Assembly: GCA_003574845.1 (NCBI GenBank)
Contig: NDHY01000002.1
Location: 16,317-80,316 of the forward strand
DNA: 64,000 bases
Direction of reading: 5' to 3'
From: a candidate division NPL-UPA2 bacterium Unc8
Lineage (GTDB): Bacteria > NPL-UPA2
Below, in pieces: positions 14,034-55,570 of this stretch. The translations under genes were made by a program, and so were the position numbers. The number at the start of each line of letters is the position of its first letter. Position 1 is the stretch's first letter. The notes beneath the pieces are model-generated. The model was not told the DNA's origin. It saw only the letters and a list, made by a program, of their open reading frames with translations, and made no database searches.

Positions 14034-14061
14034 AATTTTCCCTCTATTTATTTCTCTTGAT

Positions 14062-14411
14062 GGAGCTACTCATAAGCCGGGTTCTGTATAGTGGTGACTA
14101 TTTATCTGTTCATCAGATTGCTCTGATGAATCAAGCAGCCTACCCGGGGGTCAGACGGAACGGGCAATTCCTTCCCCCTTATTTGGCCTTGCTCCAGGTG
14201 GGGTTTACCATGCCCTGCCAGATCACTCCGGCAGGCGGTGAGCTCTTACCTCGCCTTTTCACCCTTACCCTTAACATCAGAGATGTCAAGTGCGGTATAT
14301 TTTCTGTGGCACTTTCCGTCAGGTCACCCTGCGTCGCCGTTAGCGACCACCTTGCCCTCTGGAGCCCGGACTTTCCTCCCGCCTAAGGCGAGCAGCCACC
14401 TGAGTAGCTCC
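14062..14411 (-). ncRNA. rnpB: RNase P RNA, bacterial type A
   Basis: Reverse complement contains near-verbatim conserved blocks of E. coli M1 RNA (GGAGGAAAGTCCGGGCTCC, GGTAAGAGCTCACC, GGTAAACCCCACCTGGAGCAAGGCCAAATAGG, CCCGGGTAGGCTGCTTG, ACAGAACCCGGCTTAT). The P1 helix is GGAGCTACTCA/TGAGTAGCTCC. The track's ORF 14057..14386 is spurious. Confidence 0.92.
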
Positions 14412-15533: not shown

Positions 15534-16409
15534 TCATAATCCAGCAACATCCAATACCCCCGGCACAATTTTCTCCCAGCCAATAGCCATAATATGCACC
15601 CCTTGACAGATGTCCCTCAGCTCCTTGATTAGGTTAGCAGCAATTTCTATCCCTGTCGCCGCTTTATCTTCAGCCTCAGCCATTTTGTTAATCAATTCTT
15701 CAGGGACGAAAACACCAGCCACATTTTTATTCATATATCGTGCCATACCAGCTGATTTCAAGGGTATTATTCCAACCAAGATAGGGATGCCAAATCCTTT
15801 CACCCTTTTCATAAATTTGGCGAAGGCTCCGGGCTCATAGACGGCCTGGGTTTGAAAGAACCTGGCCCCGGTTGCAATCTTTTTCTCCATCTTAATAAGC
15901 TGTAATTCAAAGGCAGCTTCACTACCCATCCCGGGATTTACTACTGCTCCAGGAAAGAAATTTGGCTTACCCTTGAGCTCATTATCAACCATATCGTAAC
16001 CTTCGTTTAACCTTTTTATGACCCACAAGAGCTGCACCGAGTCTAAGTCGAAAACTGGCTTGGCCTGGGGGTGGTCGCCGAGAGAGGGTAAATCGCCGGT
16101 GAGTGCCAGAACATTTTCAATCCCCAGGGCATAGGCACTCAACAGGTCTGATTGTAGCGCCAATCGGTTTCTATCGCGGCAGGTCATCTGTAATATCGGC
16201 TCGAGCCCGCTTTCTTTCAACAGGTGGCAGACAGCCAATGAGCCCATCCTCATCACCGAGCTTTGCTGGTCAGTAACATTGGCAGCATCCACCCTTCCCC
16301 GCAGAAGCTCAGCCACCTCCACAATCTCGGTGGTGTCGGTTCCCTTCAGCGGACCGACCTCAGCCGTCACCACAAACTTTCCTGCCTCAAGAAGTGATTG
16401 CAAACTCAT
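15534..16409 (-). CDS. metF: 5,10-methylenetetrahydrofolate reductase, short acetogen-type MetF
   Basis: 291 aa TIM-barrel MTHFR without a regulatory domain. Adjacent to metV. Confidence 0.85.
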   Translation of the reverse strand: MSLQSLLEAGKFVVTAEVGPLKGTDTTEIVEVAELLRGRVDAANVTDQQSSVMRMGSLAVCHLLKESGLEPILQMTCRDRNRLALQSDLLSAYALGIENVLALTGDLPSLGDHPQAKPVFDLDSVQLLWVIKRLNEGYDMVDNELKGKPNFFPGAVVNPGMGSEAAFELQLIKMEKKIATGARFFQTQAVYEPGAFAKFMKRVKGFGIPILVGIIPLKSAGMARYMNKNVAGVFVPEELINKMAEAEDKAATGIEIAANLIKELRDICQGVHIMAIGWEKIVPGVLDVAGL

Positions 16410-17076: not shown

Positions 17077-18276
17077 TTAATTCTGTCGGATTCGGTTTTC
17101 ATAGACACTTCTAAAATACTGCAAACTATTTACTACCGGAATAGGAGCAGCTTGCCCCAGACCACATAGAGAAGAAAGCATCATGGCGCTGGCTACTTCC
17201 TCTAAAAGGCTAATGTCTGTCTCCAACCCCCCTCCCCGGGAAAACCTCTCCAGAATTTCAACCATTACTTCGGTCCCTTCTCGGCAGGGAGTGCATTTGC
17301 CGCAACATTCTTCAGCTAAAAACTCCATGACTCTATAGACGATATCTATTATGTCCCTGGTCTCATTAAATACAATGATGGCTCCCGCCCCAAGAATACT
17401 TTCAAAGGCAAGGGGCATATCTATCATCTCATAGGGTATAATTCTTCCCGTGGCACCACCCACCTGAACCATTTTAACCTTCTCGGCTAAGGCTAATCCT
17501 TCGACTAATTCCCTCAGCCGACTCCCCAGGACTAATTCATATACGCCAGGCTTTTTCACATCCCCACTCACCGAGAAAACTTTAGTGCCCTTGCTCTGCT
17601 CTGTTCCCAATTGACTAAACCAGTGACCTCCGTTAAAGATGATCTGAGGTATATTCATCAGGGTTTCTACATTATTGATAATAGTTGGTTTTCCCCACAA
17701 ACCTCTTGATGGCGGGAACGGAGGTCTATACCGAACCTCCCCCCGCTTACCTTCTATAGAATCCATTAGCGCTGACTCCTCACCACATATATAGGCGCCA
17801 GCACCTTCACGAATATCAATGTCAAATTGGTCTAAAAAACCCCCCTCTTTGGCTTGACCAATAGCATTTTTCAACAAATCAAGCAGACAATGATATTCGG
17901 CACGCAGATAGATGTAGCCCCTCTTTGCCCCAATGGCATAGCCAGCAATAGCCATAGCTTCAATCAGAGTGAACGGGTCCCTTTCCAGAATATATCTATC
18001 CTTAAATGTTCCTATCTCCCCTTCATCGGCATTGCAGATAACGTATTTCTCATCCACTTGAGCTTTTCCTGCCAACTCCCATTTCAATCCACAGGGGAAC
18101 CCAGCCCCTCCTCGACCCCGCAGCCCCGATAGCTTTATTTCGTCTATTATTTGTTCCTGAGTCACCCCAGCCAAAGCTTTTTTCAAAGCTTTAAAACCAT
18201 CCCTATCCAAATAAGTGGATATCTGCATCGGGTCGATAACCCCGCAATTTCTTAAGACAATCCGCTGCTGCGCCAT
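17077..18276 (-). CDS. NuoF-like NAD(H)-binding FMN/[4Fe-4S] subunit (51-kDa family), core form
   Basis: 399 aa. GRGGAGFPCGLKWE FMN-binding signature and a C-terminal Cys cluster (CGKCTPCREG). Confidence 0.85.
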   Translation of the reverse strand: MAQQRIVLRNCGVIDPMQISTYLDRDGFKALKKALAGVTQEQIIDEIKLSGLRGRGGAGFPCGLKWELAGKAQVDEKYVICNADEGEIGTFKDRYILERDPFTLIEAMAIAGYAIGAKRGYIYLRAEYHCLLDLLKNAIGQAKEGGFLDQFDIDIREGAGAYICGEESALMDSIEGKRGEVRYRPPFPPSRGLWGKPTIINNVETLMNIPQIIFNGGHWFSQLGTEQSKGTKVFSVSGDVKKPGVYELVLGSRLRELVEGLALAEKVKMVQVGGATGRIIPYEMIDMPLAFESILGAGAIIVFNETRDIIDIVYRVMEFLAEECCGKCTPCREGTEVMVEILERFSRGGGLETDISLLEEVASAMMLSSLCGLGQAAPIPVVNSLQYFRSVYENRIRQN

Positions 18277-18772: not shown

Positions 18773-19450
18773 TTAGCCGCTTATAATCAATGGCTCACCT
18801 TTCTTTTCTTCTCCTATTTCCCCGTGCTTGCTTAATGCACCGGTTGGGCAAAAGGAGATGCAGACATCGCAATCTCGGCAAACATCCTTATCTATTGGTT
18901 GGTCGAAATCAACCACAACCTTAGAATCAAAGCCTCGATAAGCTATGCCGAATACTTTCTCCTTTTTTATTTCATTACACGCACTTACGCATCTCCGACA
19001 TAAGATACACTTTGTTAAATCACGGACGATGAACGGACTTGCGTCTTCTACAGGATAATAACGTTTTTTCACCTGAAATCGGGGCAGCCCCACCTCTAAG
19101 TCAGTAGCAATACTGCGTAATTCACATATGTTAGCCTTATCGCACATAAAACAGTTCCCACAGTGACTGGCCAGTAAAAGCTCTACCATTGTCTTGCGGA
19201 CTTGCAAAACCTTCTTTGAATGGGTATGGATAACCATGCCCTGGGCGATTGGAGTATGGCAAGAGCCAACCAAAGTCTCGGACCTCTCTACTTCAACAAC
19301 GCAAATCCGACAAGCTCCAATAGGAGATAGTTCCTGTCTATAGCACAGAGCGGGAATATCTATACTATTTTCTTTGGCAACTTCGAGAATAGTCATCCCG
19401 GAGCTTGCGCTTAATTGACGGTCATTTATAGTTAAAGCTATCTGCTCCAT
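18773..19450 (-). CDS. NuoG N-terminal-like Fe-S protein: plant-type [2Fe-2S] + His-ligated [4Fe-4S] + two ferredoxin-type [4Fe-4S] clusters
   Basis: 225 aa. CYRQELSPIGACRIC, HCGNCFMCDKANIC, CILCRRCVSAC and CRDCDVCISFCP. Paralogous to the first ~220 aa of fdhA. Confidence 0.75.
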   Translation of the reverse strand: MEQIALTINDRQLSASSGMTILEVAKENSIDIPALCYRQELSPIGACRICVVEVERSETLVGSCHTPIAQGMVIHTHSKKVLQVRKTMVELLLASHCGNCFMCDKANICELRSIATDLEVGLPRFQVKKRYYPVEDASPFIVRDLTKCILCRRCVSACNEIKKEKVFGIAYRGFDSKVVVDFDQPIDKDVCRDCDVCISFCPTGALSKHGEIGEEKKGEPLIISG

Positions 19451-20108: not shown

Positions 20109-22911
20109 AACTCTTAAGTCCGGAAGCCACCGACATGTTGCACACCGCCGGGTTCATCAGGACGTTAACCGGGGACTCGGCGAAATGGAAGCTCATACAG
20201 ACCAGACCCGGCGGAACGCGGTCGGTAAGATTTATCTTAGATTTAATTGAGCCGCGGCGGGAAGTCACTTTAACGGTATCCTCGGCATCTAACCCCAGTC
20301 CCTCTGCGTCCTGTGGATTTATTTCCATCCGCTCTTCTTTGATGAGGCTGTTCAAGCCATCGGATTTACCCGTCATGGTTCTGGTATGGTAATGGTAGAG
20401 CTTGCGTCCGGTTGTCAGGATGAAGGGATAGTCTTCATCGGTAGCATCAGCGGCCAGTGGTCGGTATTCTACAGTGGAGAACTGGCCTATGCCGCGGGCG
20501 AATTTGCTTTTGTGCAGTATGGGTGTGCCGGGATGGTCGATGGCGGTGCAGGGCCATTGGAGTCCGCCGGCATCAAGTCGCTCATAGCTCATGCCGCCAA
20601 AGTAGTGTGGTGTCAGCTCTCTTACCTCATCCCATATTTCTTCAGCAGAACTATAGTTCCAGTTAAGGCCGAACCTGTTGGCCAGTTCCTGGATGATTTC
20701 CCAGTCAGCTTTGCTGTCGCCGCGCGGTTTGATGGCACGGCGGATGAGCTGTACCCGTCTTTCTGTATTGATGAAGGTACCGTCTTTCTCGGCAAAGGAG
20801 GCTGCCGGCAAGACAACATCGGCGTATTGAGCGGTTTCGTTCAGGAAGATGTCTTGGACTACCACGAAGTCCATATCTTCTAAGGCTTCACGAACAAGTT
20901 CAGCCTGTGGGCTGGTAAGAACAGGGTTTTCTCCCATGATATACATGATGCGACTGCGCCTGTGAGGGAAATAGTGGAACATCTCAGCTATGGTGCGGCC
21001 GGGCACATCGGAGAGCTCCACTCCCCACGCCCTGGAGAACTTGGCGCGTATCGTATCGCTGACACTCATATTGAGTGATATAGGCTCATCAAACTCTATA
21101 CTTTCAATAACCGAGCTATCAGCCCCCGCCTCCTCCCGGCTGACGGCTGACGGCTGACGGCTGACGGCTCCCTTGAGCCGTTGCCAGTAGGTACCCGTGT
21201 CTCTGTCGCTGTGTACTGGCTGGTAACCGGTCAGGACGTTGGGCAGGCAACCCATATCGCAGGCGCCCTGCACGTTGTTTTGGCCGCGCAGCGGGTACAT
21301 GCCGGCATGTGGTTTACCCAGGTTGCCGGTGAGCAGGGAGAGGTTGGTTAGGGCGACGACATTTTCGGTACCGCAGGTATGCTGTGTTACGCCCATGGCG
21401 TAGAAGATGGAGCCGCTGTCAGCTTGAGCAAAGAGCCGGGCGGCGGTGATAATTTTTTCTGCCGCTACTCCGGTTATTTTGGCGACGTAGTCCGGTGTGT
21501 ATTTTTCAACCATTTTTTTTAGGTGTTGGAAATCCTGAGTGCGGGTCTCAATGTATTCCTGGTCTTGAAGCCCTTCTTTTATGATTACGTGCGCCAGAGC
21601 ATTGAAGAGGGCTATGTCTGTCCCGGGCTTGAATTGCAGGTGTACGTCGGCTATTTCTGCCAGCTGTATACGGCGCGGGTCGGCAACGATCAACTTAGCG
21701 CCATTCCTGACAGCCTGGCGTATTCTGTAACCAATAACAGGTTGACTTTCGGTGGGGTTAATGCCGGTTACTAAAATGGCCCCGGCGCCTGCTATCTCGT
21801 CAACAGTATTTGTCATTGCTCCGCTGCCTAATACGGTGGCCAGACCGACCACGGTGGGGGCATGTCAGAGGCGTGCGCAGCAATCAATACTGTTGGTGCC
21901 CAGAGAGCGCAATAACTTCTGGAAGAGGTAGTTTTCCTCGTTGGTTACCCTGGCTGAACTTAACCCGGCCAGGGCTTCGGGACCGTACTTCTCCTGCGCT
22001 TCCTTAAATTTGGCTGTCACCAGGTCGAGGGCTTCATCCCAGGTGGCTTCCACAAAGACACCGTTGCGCTTAATCAGAGGGGTGGTTAAGCGATCAGGAT
22101 GATTGACAAAGTCATAGCTAAAGCGCCCTTTCACGCAGAGCTGCCCTTTATTGACGACACTATCACGGTCGCCGCGGGCAGAGACTATTTTGTCTCCGCG
22201 TATGCCTAGATAAATCCCGCAACCGGTACCGCAGTAGGGACAGATACTCTTCACTTCACGCTCTGGCTTCCGCATATTTTGGGGGACTAAGGCGCCCACC
22301 GGACATCTCACAACACACTCTCCACAGGACTCACATCTGGATTCTACAATGGGTTTGTCCTTGAGGGTGCTGATTCTGGTATCAAGTCCCCGAAAGGCAA
22401 AGTCGATCGCACCGACTCCGTTAATCTCTTCACAGGTCCGCACGCAGATGCCACACAGAACACACTTATTGGGATCACGGATGAAGAAGGGATTTGAGTC
22501 ATCAAGGGGAAGGTCTCGGGCAGTTCGCTTCAAGCGCTGAAGACGTCCTTCCTCGATGCCGATATAGGCGGCGATATCCTGAAGCTTGCAATCCGTGTTC
22601 CGGGCACACTGGAGACACTCGGAGTAATGGTTTACGATGAGCAGTTCAGCGGCGACTCGACGCATCTTATCTATCTCCGGACCTTCCGTCCGCACCGCTA
22701 TCCCCTCCTCAACCGGCGCCTTACAGGAAATGGTGAGACCCCTTCCCTCGATCTCAACGACGCACAGACGGCACCCTCCGAAGGGCTTTAAGTCGGGGTG
22801 ATAGCAGAGATGCGGGATATAGATGCCATGATCGAGTGCCGCTTGAAGTATGGTATCCTCTTTGTTCGCCATAACCTCTAAGTCATCCAGCTTAAGAACA
22901 ACCTTATCCAT
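20083..22911 (-). CDS. fdhA: Formate dehydrogenase catalytic subunit (molybdo/tungstopterin, NuoG-like N-terminus), selenocysteine-containing; TGA at 21865-21867 is read through
   Basis: Track ORFs 21865..22950 and 20083..21852 are in the same frame, separated only by TGA. The junction reads [33 protein letters not shown], the canonical Sec active-site motif of FdhF/FdhA. An fdhF-like SECIS hairpin sits 12 nt downstream. The likely start is the ATG at 22911, overlapping the upstream NuoF-like stop as ATGGATAA. Confidence 0.85.
21138..21165. repeat. (GGCTGAC)x4 heptanucleotide tandem repeat inside the fdhA coding sequence
   Basis: Direct reading. Encodes the low-complexity segment GAVSRQPSAVSREE. 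The unit length is not a multiple of 3. Confidence 0.9.
21836..21852 (-). promoter_or_regulatory. Candidate SECIS element: hairpin GUGGUC-GGUCU-GGCCAC starting 12 nt 3' of the UGA
   Basis: 6-bp stem (one G-U pair) with the apical loop GGUCU, the same loop sequence and spacing as the E. coli fdhF SECIS. Confidence 0.55.
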
Positions 22912-24754
22912 GAATCTTAACCTCCCTTCCTGGAATAATTTCCACCGCACCGAAGCGCTCCGGGCATACGCTCAGACATACCCCGCACCTGGTGCACTTG
23001 TCCTGGTCAATTACATGAACCTCCTTCTTGCCGCCTTTGATTGCTTCGACGGGGCACTTGCGGAGGCAGATCATACAAGCCTTACATTTATCCGACACGA
23101 TAATATAGGAAATAAGCCCCTTGCACACCCTCGCTGGACACTTCTTTTCGAGGATATGGGACTCATATTCCTCGCGAAAATAACGAATGGTACTGAGGAC
23201 CGGGTTCGGTGCGCTCTGTCCCAGACCACAGATCGAGCCTATTTTAACGCTCTCACCCAGTTCAATGAGCAGGTCGATGTCCTCGATCCTGCCGTTCCCT
23301 TCCGTTATAGCGTTAAGGATCTCCAGCATTTGCACGCTTCCCAAGCGGCACAAAGAGCACTGTCCGCATGATTCCTTCTGGGTAAAGTCCAGGAAATAGC
23401 GGGCGAGATCAACCATGCAGGTATCCTCATCCACCACCACCATACCCCCGGAGCCCATCATCGAGCCAGCGGCGGTAAGCGAATCGAAATCAATGGGGGT
23501 ACCGAGCAGGCCTTCAGGCAGAACGCCCCCCGAAGGCCCCCCGGTCTGCACCGCCTTAAAAGTCCTGCCGCCGGGGACCCCTCCCCCGATGTCAAAGATA
23601 ATCTCACGAAGGGTGATTCCCATAGGCACCTCTATAAGCCCGCAGTTTGTTATCTTACCAGTCAGTGAAAAGATGGCCGTTCCTTTGCTCTTCTCAGTGC
23701 CCTGGCTGGCAAACCACTCCGCCCCTTTATTGATAATCCAGCGAATGTTGGCGAAGGTCTTAACGTTATTAAGAAGCGTAGGCCTACCCCACAATCCCAC
23801 CTCGGTGGTGCGGGGACGAGGGAGGGGCTTGGGCATTCCCCTCGCCCCCTCAAGGGAGAGAGTCAAAGCAGTGGACTCACCACAAACAAAAGCCCCTGCA
23901 CCCTGGAAAATCTCAATATCAAAACCGAATCCATTGCCTAAAACATTTTCCCCCAGAAAACCCCGCTCCCGAGCCTCGGCGATGGCAATCCCGAGACGTT
24001 TTACCGCCAGGGGATATTCCGCCCGGACGTAGACATAGCCTTTTGTCGCTCCCACGGCGTAGCCGGCAATGATCATCCCCTCTACGACTGAGTGAGGGTC
24101 GCCTTCCAGGACCGATCGGTCCTGGAAGGCCCCGGGGTCGCCTTCATCGGCATTGCAGACTACATACTTCTCGTCCCCCGGCACGCGGCGACAGGCCTCC
24201 CACTTCCGCCCGGCAGGAAAGCCGCCTCCTCCGAGTCCACGCAGCCCCGAGCGTTTTACCGCCTCGATAACCTGCTCCGGGGTCATCTCAGATAGAACCT
24301 TGCGTAGTGCTTGATAACCGCCGACGGCAAGATAGTCATCAATCTCCTCAGGGTCAATATAGCCGCAATTCTTGAGCACGGTGCGCTGCTGCTTGTTATA
24401 GAAGGTAATGTCGCGGTGATGAGGTATTGCTCTGTCAGTAACCGGATCGCGGTAGAACAGTCGCTCGATCGGCTGTCCCTGCGGCAGAAGCGACCGAGCA
24501 ATCTCCGGTGCATCGTCCACCTTGACCTCTGAGTAGAGAAGGCCCTCGGGCTCGATAATGACAACAGGATCTATTTGGCTGAAGCCACGGCAGCCGGTGT
24601 GCTTCACTTGAACGGTACCTGCCAAATCTAACCGTGCTATCTCCTCCCTCAGCGCGGCTGAAATTTGTTTGGCTCCTGCTGATATGCAGCATGTCCCCTG
24701 ACCGAGCAGGACAGTCCTAACCGGCATCTTGTCCCTCCTTTTTGGTGGAAGCAA
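22904..24754 (-). CDS. HydB/HndC/HylB-type NuoF-like subunit: N-terminal thioredoxin-like [2Fe-2S], FMN/NAD(P)H core, C-terminal 2x[4Fe-4S] ferredoxin
   Basis: 616 aa. N-terminal CxxC pair, GLGGGGFPAGRKWE, CGQCSLCRLG, then CKACMICLRKCP and CTRCGVCLSVCP. Confidence 0.85.
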   Translation of the reverse strand: MLPPKRRDKMPVRTVLLGQGTCCISAGAKQISAALREEIARLDLAGTVQVKHTGCRGFSQIDPVVIIEPEGLLYSEVKVDDAPEIARSLLPQGQPIERLFYRDPVTDRAIPHHRDITFYNKQQRTVLKNCGYIDPEEIDDYLAVGGYQALRKVLSEMTPEQVIEAVKRSGLRGLGGGGFPAGRKWEACRRVPGDEKYVVCNADEGDPGAFQDRSVLEGDPHSVVEGMIIAGYAVGATKGYVYVRAEYPLAVKRLGIAIAEARERGFLGENVLGNGFGFDIEIFQGAGAFVCGESTALTLSLEGARGMPKPLPRPRTTEVGLWGRPTLLNNVKTFANIRWIINKGAEWFASQGTEKSKGTAIFSLTGKITNCGLIEVPMGITLREIIFDIGGGVPGGRTFKAVQTGGPSGGVLPEGLLGTPIDFDSLTAAGSMMGSGGMVVVDEDTCMVDLARYFLDFTQKESCGQCSLCRLGSVQMLEILNAITEGNGRIEDIDLLIELGESVKIGSICGLGQSAPNPVLSTIRYFREEYESHILEKKCPARVCKGLISYIIVSDKCKACMICLRKCPVEAIKGGKKEVHVIDQDKCTRCGVCLSVCPERFGAVEIIPGREVKIHG

Positions 24755-26874: not shown

Positions 26875-26896
26875 AGTGCTAACAGCCTACCTTTGT

Positions 26897-26932
26897 GTCT
26901 TTGTCTTTGTCTTTGTCTTTGTCTTTGTCTTT
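26897..26932. repeat. (GTCTTT)x6 hexanucleotide microsatellite in the dodecin 3' UTR
   Basis: Direct reading: gtctttgtctttgtctttgtctttgtctttgtcttt. Confidence 0.9.
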
Positions 26933-26941
26933 GACCTTAGA

Positions 26942-43463: not shown

Positions 43464-44522
43464 TTATTGAAAGGTATGGATTGCGGTGGACTTGAAAGCG
43501 AGGTAGATGGAGGCTCCCTCCCTTAAGTCTAACTCAGAGAGAGCATTCCCGGTTATCAATACCTTGAATATAACCCAGCCCACTTTTACCTGAACTTCAT
43601 AATAGAATCCCTCTCTGATGATTTTAGAAATCACGCCTCTGAAGTTGTTACGCATACTTGAGGAGAGTCTCTCCCTGCTTATCACTATATCCTCTGGTCT
43701 AATAGCCAGATACCCTTGAGCATCCTTCATCTCCCTTCCCAGTTCCACCTCCAAATTCTGAAGCCATGCCTTGCTACCCTTAAATTCCACCAAAAAGATG
43801 TTCTTCATACCCACGAACTCCGCCACCTCTCTATCTCTGGGGAAAGCAAATACCTCACTCCGCTCCCCGACCTGATGGACCTCACCATTTATGAGCACAA
43901 CTATCCTATCCGCCAGGCGCTGGCCCTGGGCCATATCATGCGTCGTCATTACTATCGTGGTGCCATACCGATGGATAATATTTGTTATGAGTTCTTCAAT
44001 TCTTGATGTTGAAATCGGATCAAGGTTTGCCGTAGGTTCATCCAGTAGTAATACCTCTGGCTCAACCGCTATCGCTCTGGCTATTGCCACCCTTTGTGCT
44101 TCGCCACCAGACAGTGTTCCGGCATTTCTATTCTTATGGTCTGAGAGATTAACCATCTCCAGAATATTATCAACTTTTTGGCGAATACTACTTTTCCCCA
44201 CCCCTCGCCATTTCAGCCCATAGGCAATATTATTATAGACAGTAGTGTTAAATACCACTGGTTTCTGACTTACAAACGCCATTCGTCGCCGTGTCTCTAA
44301 TCCAACCTTCCCAAGCTGGGTAACATCGGTGTCATCAAAATATATCCTCCCCGATGTAGGCATATCAAGCAGGTCAATCAGGCGTAAAAGCGTAGTTTTA
44401 CCAGCACCAGTGGGACCAATCAGGGCAAGAACCTCACCACTTTCCACCTTGATATTGATATTTTTCAGGGATTCTTTCTCGCCAAATCTCTTAGATAGGT
44501 TTCTCACTTCTACTATGACCAT
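43464..44522 (-). CDS. tupC: ABC transporter ATP-binding protein with C-terminal TOBE domain (tungstate/molybdate type)
   Basis: 352 aa. Walker A GPTGAGKTT, LSGGEAQRVAIARA, and a TOBE-like C-terminus. Confidence 0.8.
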   Translation of the reverse strand: MVIVEVRNLSKRFGEKESLKNINIKVESGEVLALIGPTGAGKTTLLRLIDLLDMPTSGRIYFDDTDVTQLGKVGLETRRRMAFVSQKPVVFNTTVYNNIAYGLKWRGVGKSSIRQKVDNILEMVNLSDHKNRNAGTLSGGEAQRVAIARAIAVEPEVLLLDEPTANLDPISTSRIEELITNIIHRYGTTIVMTTHDMAQGQRLADRIVVLINGEVHQVGERSEVFAFPRDREVAEFVGMKNIFLVEFKGSKAWLQNLEVELGREMKDAQGYLAIRPEDIVISRERLSSSMRNNFRGVISKIIREGFYYEVQVKVGWVIFKVLITGNALSELDLREGASIYLAFKSTAIHTFQ

Positions 44523-44524
44523 TA

Positions 44525-45211
44525 TTACCTCTGCTGTATTCTATTCAGGACTACGTTGACTATGAAAGATAGCGACAGGAGAATAATCCCCAGAGCTATT
44601 GCCATCTCTAACTCACCCTTTTGTGATTCCAGCGCTATCGCCGAAGTAAGCACTCTGGTGAACCCCCTTATATTCCCACCGACCATAAGAGCGATTCCCA
44701 ACTCTGAGACGGCTCGTCCGAAACCCATTATGATAGCGGCGACAATGGCGAACCTTGCCTCTTTTGAGATAATTATAACAGCCTGAAAGTCGCTGGCGCC
44801 AAGCGATAGCGCCGTATCCTTAATCGCTTTATCTACACCACTGAGAGCCGAAATGGTTAGACCGAGCAATATCGGTGTGATTAACATCATGTGCCCGATG
44901 ACCATAGTAGTTGGCGTGAAGAGTAGATTTAAGCCACCGATCGGACCGGCCCGAGAAAAGAGGACAAAGACAAGTAAGCCAATACAGACCGAGGGGATAC
45001 TGAATAATGTCTGGATGACATTTATCAAAACTCTCTTGCCCGGGAAACGGTAAAAGTGGATGAGACCGCCAAGCGGTAGGCAAATAAGAGAGGCGAGGAT
45101 AACGGAGGTCGCTGAAATCCCCAGCGACCTCCCGGCTATCTCCATAACCTCTGGGTCAAGCGAGACGATAAGCTCGATAGCTTTGATAAAGGCGTGCCAT
45201 ACTTCAATCAA
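44525..45211 (-). CDS. tupB: ABC transporter permease (tungstate/molybdate type)
   Basis: 228-aa polytopic membrane protein with an EAA-like loop, located between the binding-protein and ATPase genes. Confidence 0.8.
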   Translation of the reverse strand: MIEVWHAFIKAIELIVSLDPEVMEIAGRSLGISATSVILASLICLPLGGLIHFYRFPGKRVLINVIQTLFSIPSVCIGLLVFVLFSRAGPIGGLNLLFTPTTMVIGHMMLITPILLGLTISALSGVDKAIKDTALSLGASDFQAVIIISKEARFAIVAAIIMGFGRAVSELGIALMVGGNIRGFTRVLTSAIALESQKGELEMAIALGIILLSLSFIVNVVLNRIQQR

Positions 45212-45223
45212 TGGATCTTACTC

Positions 45224-46153
45224 CTATTCTTTAGGTTCTGCCCCGGCACAAGGGATGAATAGCGGCATCCCAAACTCCTCAACGCCGTAATTGCCGATGA
45301 GTTCCTGTATTTCAGGTGAGGTGAGGAATTCTATGAGGTTATTGGCCATCTCAATATTGGTTTTGGGATGCCTTTCTGGATTTATGGCAATGGCGGAGTA
45401 AACATTGAGCAATATAGCTCCTTCATCCACGAGCGGCACCAAATCCACTTCACCCCCGAAAGCGAGAAAAGTCCCCATATCAACCAGAGTATAGGCCTGC
45501 TTCTCACTGGCCATAAGGAGGGTTGGACCCATTCCTCTTCCCGCTTCTATATACCACTTCCCGGCTCTTCGAACTGCTTCATAATCATAGCCCGCTCCTC
45601 TCCAGATTGCCTTCTCCTTGCCATGGGTCCCAGAAGCATCTCCTCTGGAAACAAAGCGCCCGAGGCCGGTTTCCATCAATCTCTTGAAAGCTGCCTCTGG
45701 GCTTAGACCTTTAATGCCTGCCGGGTCATCTGGTGGTCCCACAATGAGGAAATAGTTGTAAGCAAAGACAACTCGCTGGACACCATAACCCTCGGCGACG
45801 AATTTCTTCTCATAGGCTTTGGCATGAGTAGCGATAACATCTACATCTCCTCTCCTTCCCCACGCCAAGGCTATCCCGGTTCCGGCATAAATGATATCTA
45901 ACTCTACATTGAATTCCTTCTCAAACATCGGTTCCAGGTGCCCCCACAGACCGGTGTCATAAAGGCTGGTGGTAGTAGCTACTCTCATTCTTTCCACGGG
46001 CCGCAGTGCCTCAACCGTTGGTGGTGCGGGAGGCAGTACCTCAACCGGTGGTGGTACAGGAGCACGTCCCACCCTACCTATAAACAGGCCAAGGAGTACT
46101 ATTACTACCAGTCCTCCTATCATCTTACCTATTCTTTTACCTCTTTTACCCAT
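45224..46153 (-). CDS. tupA: Periplasmic tungstate-binding protein, TupA family (start taken at the internal Met MGKRGKRIG...)
   Basis: The TTTSLYDTGLW motif (TTTS..D[T/S]GL) is the TupA/WtpA-type oxyanion-binding signature. A signal/transmembrane segment precedes it. Confidence 0.75.
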   Translation of the reverse strand: MGKRGKRIGKMIGGLVVIVLLGLFIGRVGRAPVPPPVEVLPPAPPTVEALRPVERMRVATTTSLYDTGLWGHLEPMFEKEFNVELDIIYAGTGIALAWGRRGDVDVIATHAKAYEKKFVAEGYGVQRVVFAYNYFLIVGPPDDPAGIKGLSPEAAFKRLMETGLGRFVSRGDASGTHGKEKAIWRGAGYDYEAVRRAGKWYIEAGRGMGPTLLMASEKQAYTLVDMGTFLAFGGEVDLVPLVDEGAILLNVYSAIAINPERHPKTNIEMANNLIEFLTSPEIQELIGNYGVEEFGMPLFIPCAGAEPKE

Positions 46154-46301
46154 TATTTTTCTCCTTATTTTTTCATTTACCCTCATTTTTCCCGCTGAAC
46201 AACAGTCCCTTAATGACTTTGAAATTTTAACATTTTCCCCAACATTTTCCCCTCCTTGTCTTTTTTTATTTACCCTCATTTTTACGGTCTGCTTTCACAA
46301 C

Positions 46302-46339
46302 ATAAAAAAACCAGCTCCCATGAATTTAGAGAGCTGGTT
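46302..46339 (-). terminator. Intrinsic terminator/attenuator: 9-bp stem AACCAGCTC / GAGCTGGTT with a 13-nt loop, followed by UUUUUUUAUG, about 150 nt upstream of the tupA start
   Basis: Direct reading of the minus strand: GGCGAUAACCAGCUCUCUAAAUUCAUGGGAGCUGGUUUUUUUAUG. Confidence 0.7.
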
Positions 46340-46608
46340 ATCGCCGAGACGCCAAAGCCTGCTGAGACGCTGAATTATTTCCTGCGTTTCTGCGGCCAAA
46401 GGGTTCTGCGTTTGCTCCTTTCCAAACACGGGAGGTATCCCGATTTCTCAAAATGCCCTATCGCTCCGATGCCATATCTCATTATTAAGACTTAGGCGCC
46501 CGGAGTCGGAGCCATATTTAATTGTTAAAGCATATCATGCCACAATATTAGGGGATGTCAAGAAAAATCTTAGGAAGAGAAAACATGGTCAGACCTCAAC
46601 AAAATGAG

Positions 46609-47024
46609 TGGGTAGTAGGTAGTAGGTAGTGAGCAGGTAACAAGTCATTAGCTAAAGTAAAGTATGAGCAAAGTAATGTTAACATATTGAATTTCAATCT
46701 CCTACATTAGTAAATAAAGGCACAAAGAATTAAGTTGTAAGTTGTAAGTTGTAAGTCGTAAGTTGTAAGTAGAGAGTAGAGAGAAAAGAGAGATGAAATT
46801 GGAAATTAGAAATTGGAAATTGGGTGTAGTGTAGCCCTTTATGGGCGTAGAGAGTAGAGAGAAGAGAGTAGAGAGAGATGAAAATGGAAATTGGAAATTG
46901 GAAATTAGTAAGTGGTGGGTAGTAGGTAGTAAGTAGTTTAGGGTTTAGGGTTTAGGGTTTAGGGTTTAGGATTTGTAATTGATAACTGGTGTTCTGGTGC
47001 TCTGGTGATCTGGTGATCTGGTAA
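46609..47024. repeat. Repeat island of consecutive different short tandem arrays: (GGTAGTA)n, GGCACAAAG, (TTGTAAG)x5, GTAGAGAGTAGAGAG, (GAAATTG)x3-4 (twice), (TTTAGGG)x4.7, (CTGGTGNT)x4
   Basis: Direct reading. It includes two tandem copies of the modular element at 46719-46783 and 46841-46935 and two mini-ORFs at 46793-46834 and 46878-46922. Confidence 0.9.
46719..46783. repeat. Modular dispersed repeat, copy 2 (reverse orientation): GGCACAAAG-AATTAAG-(TTGTAAG)n-TAGAGAGTAGAGAG
   Basis: Its reverse complement, CTCTCTACTCTCTAC-(TTACAAC)n-TTAATTCTTTGTGCC, has the same architecture as 55440-55496. Confidence 0.85.
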
Positions 47025-47125
47025 GTTATTTTTTGTGTTCCCTACTAAGGATACATAATATATCTTATGTCAAGTAAGCAAAAAAACTAAAGAGGATAAC
47101 ACCAAAATACAAAACAAACCTCCCA

Positions 47126-47479
47126 TTAACCAATTTTACCATCAAAAACTTCCTGAAAATCATATCTACTTTTAAAGTCATCCTTACTATCCTGATCAGT
47201 CTTACTCATAAGTCCCATTTCAATCATGTTGAATACAATCTCTCCAAAGTCCTCTGTTTTCCTTATTCCCCAATGTTCAAAAACAGTTCGGGTCATCAAG
47301 CCAAACTGCTGCAAGCCATATTCCCTGATTCCATCCAGAAGTTCCTGTCCACTTACATGCAGCTTCTTCAGCCTGCTTTGGGTAAAATTAAGAGCATCCA
47401 TTGTAAAGCTATATGCATCAGGATGATAGCGATTATCTTTTTCAGCAAGTTCTTCTATTTTTCTGAAAAAATCAACCAT
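47126..47479 (-). CDS. Hypothetical conserved small protein downstream of ilvD
   Basis: 117-aa ORF with no recognised family. Tightly linked to the ilvD stop. Confidence 0.4.
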   Translation of the reverse strand: MVDFFRKIEELAEKDNRYHPDAYSFTMDALNFTQSRLKKLHVSGQELLDGIREYGLQQFGLMTRTVFEHWGIRKTEDFGEIVFNMIEMGLMSKTDQDSKDDFKSRYDFQEVFDGKIG

Positions 47480-47487
47480 TTTAAACT

Positions 47488-49137
47488 TTATCTCATTGCT
47501 GCTCCATGACTTGCATCAAGACAACCTTGTTCATACCAGCTCAAACACCCCTTAATGTCTCTTTCCCGTGGTTGCCATTTTTTTATCCGTGTTTCAAGTT
47601 CATCCCTGCTAATATCCAGGTTAAGTTTTCTATTGGGAATATCTATTGAAATATAATCTCCCTCGCAAACAACTGCTATTGGGCCTCCAACCGCTGCCTC
47701 CGGCACTATATGACCAATACAAGGCCCTCGCGTACCTCCAGAGAATCGCCCATCGGTAATCAGCGCTACTGAATCTGACAAACCCCGCCCGCAGATAGCG
47801 GCAGTCGGAGCAAGCATCTCACGCATTCCAGGGCCACCCCTTGGCCCTTCATATCTGATGACTACCACATCTCCTTCTTTTATTTTATCTGAGGTAATTG
47901 CTTCATAAGCATCCTCTTCACATTCAAAGACGCGCGCCGGCCCACGTACTTTGAGCATTACATCTGCTACTGCAATTTGTTTTACCACTGCTCCATCAGG
48001 AGCCAGTGACCCTTTTAGTATGGCAATGCCGCCTTCCTTGTGCACAGGATTGGCGAGAGGACGAATTACATCTTCATTTGATACAGAAACATCAAAAATA
48101 TTGTCCACTACCCTCTTTCCGTTGACAGTGAGGCAATTTAAGTTAAGCAATGTTTGTAATTGCTTCATTACTGCAGGCACCCCGCCAGCATTTTCCATAT
48201 CAATCATAAAGTATTTGCCACCTGGCCTCATATCACAAAGATGAGGAGTATCCCGACTTAACTCATCAAAGGTTTCAAGGGGAATATCAATCCCTGCCTC
48301 GCGGGCAATCGCCAGCACCTCGAGCGTATCATTGGTAGAGCCTCCTATTGAAAGAGACACTCTTATCCAGTTCAGGAATGCCTTTTTAGTCATTATTTTC
48401 CTTGCATTAATGTCATTCTTAATAAGATTGACGACTTGCCTGCCACTCATCTCTGCTAAATGCACCTTTCTCTCGCTAGCAGCATGAGAAGTAGCGCATC
48501 CCGGGAGAGATAATCCCAGTGCCTCTGTTCCACAAGCTAAGGTATTGGCGCTGAACATCCCGGCACAGCTTCCTGCCCCGGGACAAGCACACTCCTCCAG
48601 TTCGCGGAGCTCATCCTCCCTCATCTCGCCGCCAGATGCCTTACCTACTGCCTCAAAGACACTGATTATATCTACCCTATCTCCCTGAAAATTTCCAGGA
48701 AACATAGGGCCACCCGTAACGACAATAGTTGGAATGTCCAATCGACCAGCCGCCATCAGGTGACCGGGAACGACCTCATCACATGCAGCGATAAGAACCA
48801 TTCCATCAAGAGCATGCGCCTCAATCATTATTTCAATAGAGTTAGCAATTACATCTCGGGATGGCAAAGAATACTTCATTCCCTTATGTCCTATTGCCAG
48901 CCCATCGCAGACGGCAATAGTACTGAATTCAAATGGCATTCCACCGGATTTCCTTATTCCCTTTTTCACCGCATCTGAGAGTTCTCTCAGGTGAATATGA
49001 CCAGGCACAATCTCCGTCCAGGAATTAACCACTGCAATGAACGGCTTGGTCATATCCTTTCTTGTTACTCCACACGCCTTTAAGAGAGAGCGGTGAGGTG
49101 CTCGTTCCAACCCATCCTTAATTAAATTGCTTCTCAT
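47488..49137 (-). CDS. ilvD: Dihydroxy-acid dehydratase
   Basis: 549 aa with IlvD/EDD family motifs ([15 protein letters not shown], Cys ligands for the Fe-S cluster). Confidence 0.95.
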
Positions 49138-55439: not shown

Positions 55440-55570
55440 TCTCTACTCTCTACTTACCACTTACCACTTACGACTTACGACTTAATTCTTTGTGCCTTTG
55501 TGCCTTTGTGCCTTTGTGCCTCTCTCTACTCTCTACTTACCACTTACTACTTACTACCTACTATCTACTC
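55440..55570. repeat. Modular dispersed repeat, copies 3 and 4 in tandem: [TCTCTACTCTCTAC-(TTACCAC/TTACGAC)n-TTAATTCTTTGTGCC(TTTGTGCC)3][CTCTCTACTCTCTAC-(TTACTAC)n], abutting the GGDEF gene RBS
   Basis: Direct reading. Reverse complement of motif blocks in 46719-46935. Same flanks as 10307-10365. Confidence 0.85.

Follow-up and report, generated by a model that had tools for sequence, protein, structure and literature searches.

The 5′ leader of the tupABC operon, located on the minus strand of a 64,000-nucleotide stretch of contig NDHY01000002.1 (hereafter the window), is very probably a cis-acting RF01055 riboswitch of the P3-lacking subclass assigned to the tungsten cofactor (Tuco/WCo), which controls tupABC by transcription termination. 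A Moco- or tungsten-responsive riboswitch before tupABC had been put forward as a candidate in the first-pass annotation of this DNA, which regarded the absence of any covariance-model hit as an argument against it. Scanning of the leader with the Rfam Moco model was positive and revealed a full-length element of the tungsten-associated, P3-less form. The leader is an ordinary member of a known riboswitch family, the Moco class described in 2008, and is not new: the standard Rfam model recognises the element.

The match to RF01055 (Moco RNA motif) was obtained with Rfam on the whole window. It covers positions 46399-46523 of the minus strand with a score of 72.2 bits, as against a gathering cut-off of 36, and an E value of 1.8e-15. 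Only two Rfam matches in the window reached the gathering threshold, RF01055 and an RNase P RNA. The cmscan alignment spans the positions 1-135 of the RF01055 model, and the P3 positions (around 63-77) alone are deleted. Furthermore, the covariance model that we built from tupA-linked relatives gave 91.3 bits for the same element, which was its single match in the window. The aptamer is composed of the following elements.

46399-46523, minus strand: Moco-motif aptamer of the P3-less (Tuco/WCo) type, recognised by RF01055, invariant columns and covariation
46512-46508 with 46418-46414, minus strand: stem P1, GCUCC paired with GGAGC
46505-46495 with 46473-46464, minus strand: stem P2, CUCCGG.GCC / GGC.UCGGAG
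46496-46491 and 46476-46472, minus strand: receptor strands of P2, CCUAAG / UAUGG
46458-46448 with 46443-46433, minus strand: stem P4, capped by a GAAA tetraloop (46447-46444)
46432-46431 with 46423-46422, minus strand: stem P5 of 2 bp, CC paired with GG
46423-46415, minus strand: conserved core GGAAAGGAG, at the junction into the 3′ strand of P1; the other conserved core is CCUCCC

The paired CUCCG/CGGAG segments noticed in the first reading of the leader are present and correspond to the stem P2 (46505-46500 with 46469-46464). In the same way, the CCUCCCG tract (46435-46429) and the GGAAAGGAG element coincide with the invariant cores of the Moco motif. The sequences CUCCGA, CCUCCC and GGAAAGGAG form invariant columns in the 19 aligned tupA-linked aptamers, and the window carries all of them. 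The CCUAAG and UAUGG strands presumably constitute the canonical 11-nt tetraloop receptor. A GNRA tetraloop on P4 and a receptor in P2 are described features of the Moco motif (PMC2408646). The aptamer of the window is 125 nt long, compared with 133-152 nt in P3-bearing relatives. These data directly show that the element belongs to the family and that P3 is missing. A permissive Rfam scan (E ≤1) of the region 46100-47200, which includes the linker, the repeat mosaic and the leader past the terminator, detected no RNA family besides the Moco motif.

On the minus strand, the region extending from the Minf_1886-family gene (47479-47126) to tupA opens with 430 nt of short tandem repeats arranged as a mosaic and continues with a promoter-like site and a structured segment of higher GC content; then come a hairpin with a U run behind it and an A-rich stretch with two copies of the RBS and start.

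46534-46561, minus strand: sigma-70-like promoter with −35 TTGACA (46561-46556), a 16-nt spacer and the TG-extended −10 CATGAT (46539-46534), 10 of 12 matches

The −35 element had been recognised before, and the TG-extended CATGAT is now added to it. The promoter sequence is identical in four same-species genomes. Because the scan found no more promoter-like sites in the region than in shuffled sequences (2 versus 3.9 expected), the match alone is weak evidence; the promoter is plausible because it is positioned around 10 nt 5′ of P1, and it is from this position alone that we infer its function. Transcription is predicted to start around 46527, a few nucleotides 5′ of P1. The leader would thus measure about 225 nt from the likely start to the end of the terminator, close to the 250 nt previously estimated.

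The second key element of the leader is an intrinsic terminator, which is separated from the aptamer by a linker.

46302-46339, minus strand: intrinsic terminator, an 11-bp stem (46339-46329 with 46319-46309, AACCAGCUCUC/GGGAGCUGGUU) with a 9-nt loop, seven U at 46310-46304, then AU
46342-46410, minus strand: linker hairpin between aptamer and terminator with internal repeats (CGCAGRA three times, GCGUCUC twice), lineage-specific

The clean terminator described earlier at 46309-46339 is real, its stem comprising in fact 11 bp and being followed by the U7 tract; the distance of about 150 nt to the tupA ATG (46153) was also correctly given. The hairpin 46339-46309 folds with −17.8 kcal/mol (z −4.86), and none of 200 shuffled sequences folded as well. 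It was present in every full-length fold, also when the aptamer structure was enforced. A pattern scan for terminators in 45900-47600, in which loops of at most 8 nt were allowed, gave nothing; it missed the hairpin because the 9-nt loop exceeds this limit, and direct folding reveals the structure. The terminator is a direct observation, as is the family membership of the aptamer.

The linker (46410-46342, around 65 nt) was folded in the same manner and gave −23.5 kcal/mol with z −1.55, not better than shuffles, so that the linker hairpin is unsupported as a significant structure. In the lineage of the window, the terminator begins 75 nt past the core, as compared with 20-36 nt in the relatives outside the species, which are devoid of the linker hairpin. 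This hairpin may act as a spacer between the two elements, or it may give more time for ligand binding. We consider it unlikely that the linker is a functional addition to the platform, either as a timing or pausing module for a scarce and labile cofactor or as a second sensor creating a variant architecture, with the duplicated start and a short upstream ORF possibly adding a translational layer. The linker hairpin, like the duplicated start region, is a detail specific to this lineage.

The genes located downstream of the leader encode an ABC transporter.

45224-46153, minus strand: tupA, tungstate-binding periplasmic protein (NF041772, 3LR1)
44525-45211, minus strand: tupB, ABC permease (NF041773 TupB, 170 bits; NF038017, 225 bits)
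43464-44522, minus strand: tupC-like ABC ATPase with a C-terminal TOBE domain (ABC_tran and TOBE; best NCBIfam match WtpC, 302 bits, below its cut-off)

NF041772 is the sole NCBIfam match of TupA, with 174.5 bits, which is under the equivalog cut-off of 400. The protein contains a PBP_like_2 domain, its best solved relative is the Geobacter tungstate-binding protein 3LR1 (E 4e-63), and the members of its 90% cluster are named TupA or tungsten ABC transporter substrate-binding protein in the sources. Because the cut-off of NF041772 was missed, the protein is best called TupA-like, even though this family is its only match and its structural relatives bind tungstate. The tupA gene also contains a 30-nt tandem duplication (46003-46062) in two copies with 86% match, which encodes PVPPPVEVLP/PAPPTVEALR, a proline-rich segment that follows the signal peptide and precedes the mature binding domain.

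The linkage between aptamer and transporter was then evaluated in other genomes. A TupA scan of species-representative genomes yielded 80 loci, mostly from Dehalococcoidia MAGs, encoding proteins with 55-78% identity. Among the first 20 loci, 18 had an Rfam match to the aptamer immediately 5′ of tupA. The covariance model made from the tupA-linked aptamers was run on the 80 tupA loci and on the same-species genomes. The aptamer was found in 51 of the 80 loci of other lineages, always on the strand of tupA, as well as in all three same-species genomes; within this survey, it was not found in archaeal or Aegiribacteria/Fermentibacteria tupA loci. P3 was missing in 18 of the 19 aligned tupA-linked aptamers. 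Compensatory changes were observed in 14 of 24 base pairs among these 19 sequences. With 53 distinct sequences, 94.1% of the cells were paired versus 44-54% in slid controls, and the covariation score reached 0.438 as compared with at most 0.115; the structure tested for covariation excluded the 2-bp P5.

The gene tupB follows in 49 of the 51 aptamer-bearing loci. Concomitantly, the upstream genes of the window (ilvD and the Minf_1886-family gene) occur in the same-species genomes only, and the 51 other loci have different upstream neighbours. Because the linkage of the aptamer to tupB persists while the upstream genes change, both aptamer and terminator are to be assigned to the tup operon rather than to the preceding gene; that the linkage with tupABC is conserved is here observed directly. 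A terminator-like hairpin with a U run was detected 20-36 nt past the GGAAAGGAG core in about 38 of the roughly 50 loci examined. The dominant type of terminator in the relatives is GCACCUCC(UU)...GAGGUGC-U4-7, with a 5′ arm, CCUCCUU, that is complementary to AAGGAG on the 3′ side of P1. The terminator of the window (AACCAGCUCUC...) differs in sequence from the dominant GCACCUCC... type. In one Chloroflexota MAG (L080), the region upstream of tupA contains two aptamer matches in the same orientation (1-106 and 186-318), separated by around 80 nt. They may represent a tandem arrangement, and the contig end truncates the first of them.

We then analyzed whether the leader offers a fold alternative to the terminator, as the first-pass annotation had recommended, with the lack of any such antiterminator counting against a riboswitch. 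A pairing of this type is predicted, as the minimum-energy fold of transcripts ending at 46329 and 46320.

46324-46334, minus strand: predicted 3′ strand of the antiterminator, GCUC-UCUAAAU, formed by the 5′ arm and loop of the terminator (nascent-transcript folds)

This segment is predicted to pair with GUUUGGA (46427-46421) and GAGC (46417-46414) of the aptamer core. In the folding of a nascent transcript ending at 46340, P1 is formed. When the 3′ end is moved to 46329 or 46320, P1 is replaced by a pairing of GGAGC/GAGC (46418/7-46414) with GCUC(U) of the terminator 5′ arm. The transcript with its 3′ end at 46320 adds the pairing of GUUUGGA (46427-46421) with UCUAAAU (46330-46324), and the resulting helix encloses the linker hairpin. 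When the 3′ arm of the terminator is complete, P1 together with the terminator becomes the preferred fold. Since the nascent folds move from P1 to the antiterminator and then to P1 plus terminator, the strand exchange of an OFF switch is available.

The antiterminator duplex has a calculated energy of −11.1 kcal/mol, a value that was reached by 5% of the shuffled arms and by 8% of genomic 22-mers. In the nascent folds, a pairing between the core and the terminator arm was predicted in 32 of 36 terminator-bearing loci; for the window, 14 of 100 shuffled arms did equally well. Hence the antiterminator predicted in the window is marginally better than chance (p around 0.05-0.14), and its recurrence in 32 of 36 modeled loci is stronger support for the switching logic than an individual case can be. 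Any switching would have to be kinetic, since the terminator is by far the more stable of the two structures.

From these folds we infer an antiterminator and an OFF logic, which could operate as follows. Transcription would start from the promoter 46561-46534, and the first 125 nt or so of the RNA would fold as the aptamer, with P1, P2 and its tetraloop receptor, P4 with its GAAA loop, and P5. If the cofactor is plentiful, it would bind and lock P1 and the GGAAAGGAG core; the hairpin 46339-46309 and the U tract would then form, and the RNA polymerase would halt before tupA. Under cofactor shortage, the segment 46427-46414, comprising the 3′ side of P1 and adjacent core bases, would pair with the 5′ arm and loop of the terminator (46334-46324). 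This pairing would delay the terminator, tupABC would be transcribed and more tungstate would be imported.

The region downstream of the terminator was examined in three same-species records, GCA_018725305.1 (L081), the Logan assembly of SRR8194967 (L082) and GCA_002581605.1 (L083). Exact-sequence look-ups returned loci from P0121 and P0123 only, and no contig for TupA (with both starts), TupB, P0001 or P0122. The three records have the same gene order as the window, and their IlvD and Minf_1886 proteins are 100% identical to those of the window. Throughout the promoter-to-terminator segment, only positions 46529 and 46360 distinguish them from the window, 46360 being an unpaired base of the linker. 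The linker and the terminator are identical in these sequences except for this one SNP, and hence yield no covariation. The start region of tupA contains three elements.

46210-46283, minus strand: first, vestigial tupA initiation copy, with the repeat AAAAATGAGGGTAAAT (46283-46268) and the RBS AAGGAGG (46257-46251)
46245-46210, minus strand: short ORF of 11 codons, MLGKMLKFQSH*, headed by the first start copy
46151-46190, minus strand: second, active copy, with the repeat (46190-46175), the RBS AAGGAG (46166-46161) and the tupA ATG (46153-46151)

A direct repeat of about 20 bp had been reported to flank the RBS. The repeat ATTTACCCTCATTTTT indeed exists in two exact copies and is not random, since none of 100 shuffles gave two matches. 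One copy was correctly located at 46268-46283; the other lies at 46175-46190 and not at 46183-46200. The repeated unit in fact measures around 38-42 nt, with RBS and start codon both inside it; it does not flank the RBS but is a duplication of the RBS/start region itself. This duplication accounts for the 150 nt that separate terminator and ATG. The tupA start is to be annotated at 46153 and not at 46279, the longer ORF from 46279 being unlikely as the real tupA start.

A 12-nt tandem duplication, GGGGAAAATGTT (46252-46229), was found in the window only among the same-species genomes. In L083 (2960-3040), the repeat, RBS and start occur only once, and the real tupA start of this genome is the counterpart of the first copy of the window. 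L081 and L082 lack 20 nt just past the U run of the terminator. The post-terminator region is therefore evolutionarily unstable, because the second copy is missing in L083 and these 20 nt in L081 and L082. The N-terminus of TupA differs as well, the signal peptide being MLKLKVTGLLFSGLLVV... in L083 versus MGKRGKRIGKMIGGLVV... in the window; the N-terminus of the transporter thus turns over rapidly within one species.

The nature of the ligand was considered in the light of published work. Regulski et al. 2008 divided the Moco RNAs according to P3, the P3-bearing forms accompanying the synthesis or use of Moco (PMC2408646). The P3-lacking RNAs co-occur with tungsten genes (tupA/tupB or wtpA homology) in 17 of 19 organisms, the exceptions being listed (PMC2408646), and it was proposed that they sense the tungsten cofactor, named Tuco and later WCo (PMC2408646). 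As judged from these papers, this assignment is based on gene association and not on a binding assay (PMC2408646, PMC9971707). A review of 2022 mentions that MoCo and WCo riboswitches often accompany molybdate or tungstate transporter genes (PMC9971707). A 2024 study of Eubacterium limosum described five RF01055 RNAs without P3, of which one immediately precedes tupABC (PMC11725836). Within the searchable literature, we found neither a solved structure of a Moco riboswitch nor a direct binding study. The element of the window fits the P3-lacking Tuco/WCo subclass, its putative ligand being the tungsten cofactor.

The window also encodes a plausible user of a tungsten- or molybdenum-bis-pterin cofactor. 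It is the alpha subunit of a formate dehydrogenase (22950-20083, minus strand) and has a NuoG-like N-terminus. An in-frame TGA (21865-21867) in the context CARL-U-HAPTV splits its gene into two ORFs, and because of this TGA the protein is probably a selenocysteine enzyme. Its neighbours are NuoF-like subunits (22904-24754 and 17077-18276), a HoxU/NuoG-like Fe-S protein (18773-19450) and a methylenetetrahydrofolate reductase (15534-16409).

The tungsten cofactor is not the only ligand that such an RNA could report. The same aptamer might sense the molybdenum cofactor, or a metal-free or either-metal pterin, with the transporter following the total status of the pterin cofactor. This reading could draw on the correlative nature of the Tuco assignment with its exceptions (PMC2408646), on an Rfam model that does not separate the two types, on the TupA score of 174.5 bits against an equivalog cut-off of 400, and on a formate dehydrogenase that may carry either metal. 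We regard it as quite improbable because P3 is missing both here and in 18 of the 19 tupA-linked aptamers, in agreement with the published correlation with tungsten genes (PMC2408646, PMC11725836), and because the binding protein has the tungstate-binding 3LR1 (E 4e-63) as its nearest relative of solved structure. A second reading accepts the aptamer and places the control mainly at the level of translation, or after the terminator, through the duplicated RBS and the short ORF (46245-46210), the hairpin being a leaky constitutive attenuator. An RBS sequestor has indeed been proposed for tupABC of E. limosum (PMC11725836), 150 nt with a second RBS and an 11-codon ORF separate the terminator from tupA, and the antiterminator statistics are weak. 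The tupA RBS is, however, at least 240 nt away from the aptamer, the post-terminator region is unstable in L081/L082/L083 and not conserved, and terminators directly past the aptamer are the rule in the relatives, all of which makes mainly translational control very unlikely.

The hairpin 46339-46309 could finally be unrelated to the aptamer, and serve to end the upstream Minf_1886-family gene or form part of a peptide attenuator operating through a 44-codon GTG ORF (46429-46295). It is the first strong terminator past the gene ending at 47126, and the ORF does span the region. The distance from the stop codon is, however, 790 nt, beyond the 430-nt repeat mosaic and the promoter-like site, and the upstream gene is absent from the 51 other aptamer/tupABC loci, most of which possess a terminator. 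The idea that the hairpin merely ends the gene 47126-47479, which the first-pass annotation had kept as a counter-argument, does not hold since the aptamer is retained in 51 loci without that gene; with about 38 of roughly 50 such loci bearing a terminator behind other upstream neighbours, this role of the hairpin was rejected on comparative grounds. The GTG ORF was rejected too: its start lies inside the invariant aptamer core and is not preceded by a Shine-Dalgarno sequence. The protein- or peptide-dependent attenuators first considered as equals are not needed, and a hairpin without relation to the aptamer is hardly credible.

The riboswitch with transcription termination, which we retain, resembles the P3-less subclass of RF01055 in its P1, P2, P4 and P5 stems, its cores, its GAAA loop and receptor, its location 5′ of a tungstate transporter and its intrinsic terminator (PMC2408646). 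It differs from this subclass by the additional hairpin of around 65 nt between P1 and the terminator, by a terminator at 75 nt instead of 20-36 nt past the core, and by its host, an uncultured lineage labelled candidate division NPL-UPA2. The Tuco riboswitches of E. limosum precede tupABC, wor1, fetABC and focA (PMC11725836); they share with the window the P3-less RF01055 type and, in one case, the position directly upstream of tupABC. The focA and fetABC1 aptamers are, like that of the window, followed by terminator hairpins with poly-U (PMC11725836). For tupABC of E. limosum, however, sequestration of the RBS was proposed, whereas the window has a terminator platform with a distant RBS (PMC11725836). 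A translational action was put forward there, and tungsten limitation left the tupA mRNA unchanged (PMC11725836); since the E. limosum switch is proposed to be translational, the behaviour may differ between species. The Moco riboswitch of E. coli moaA shares the RNA family and the general OFF logic proposed here, by which the cofactor represses. Unlike the window element, the moaA RNA contains P3, acts at the ribosome-binding site and controls the synthesis of the cofactor and not the uptake of metal (PMC2408646). It responds to Moco and not to the tungsten form (PMC2408646).

The tupABC genetic context is documented and the platform is of a standard type; no new question is opened by this locus. 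For annotation, the tupABC 5′ leader of this uncultured bacterium should carry the label RF01055 riboswitch, P3-less (tungsten cofactor) type. The survey adds tupA-linked P3-less aptamers, mostly from Dehalococcoidia, supports the association of P3 loss with tungsten metabolism reported in the literature, and reveals the dominant shared terminator design GCACCUCC...GAGGUGC. Compact natural P3-less examples with a clean terminator read-out, such as this element and its shorter relatives, would be handy templates for in vitro termination assays.

The origin of the locus was also considered. NPL-UPA2 is a candidate phylum, and the sources label the same-species cluster members both as "candidate division NPL-UPA2 bacterium" and as "Syntrophomonadaceae/Bacillota bacterium", so that genomes of what seems to be a single species bear conflicting labels. 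The nearest TupA proteins outside the species are at most 84% identical and mostly from Dehalococcoidia, which hints at a lateral transfer of the riboswitch-tupABC cassette, as judged from protein identities. The upstream Minf_1886-family gene corresponds to TIGR04138, a family named for Planctomycetes and Verrucomicrobia.

Several observations concern the intergenic regions of the window. Between the Minf_1886-family gene and the tup promoter, the segment 46600-47025 is a mosaic of around ten heptanucleotide tandem arrays placed back to back. Its units are AGTAGGT, TAAGTTG, AGTAGAG, GAAATTG (twice), GTAGAGA, TAGTAAG, GTTTAGG (5.6 copies) and the 8-mer CTGGTGAT; the GTTTAGG array is equivalent to the telomere-like unit TTTAGGG. 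The plus strand of the mosaic is almost devoid of C, with a GC skew of up to +0.93. The mosaic is hypervariable, because its length and content differ among same-species genomes in which the flanking proteins are 100% identical. Two other arrays were found, at 55452-55521 (ACTTACC in 4.7 copies and CTTTGTGC in 4.2 copies), directly upstream of a GGDEF-domain gene, and at 26896-26933 (TGTCTT in 6.3 copies), in an intergenic position. Short tandem arrays may thus be a general trait of the intergenic regions of this genome. The RNase P RNA detected by Rfam is of the bacterial class A and lies at 14058-14411 on the minus strand, with a score of 302 bits.
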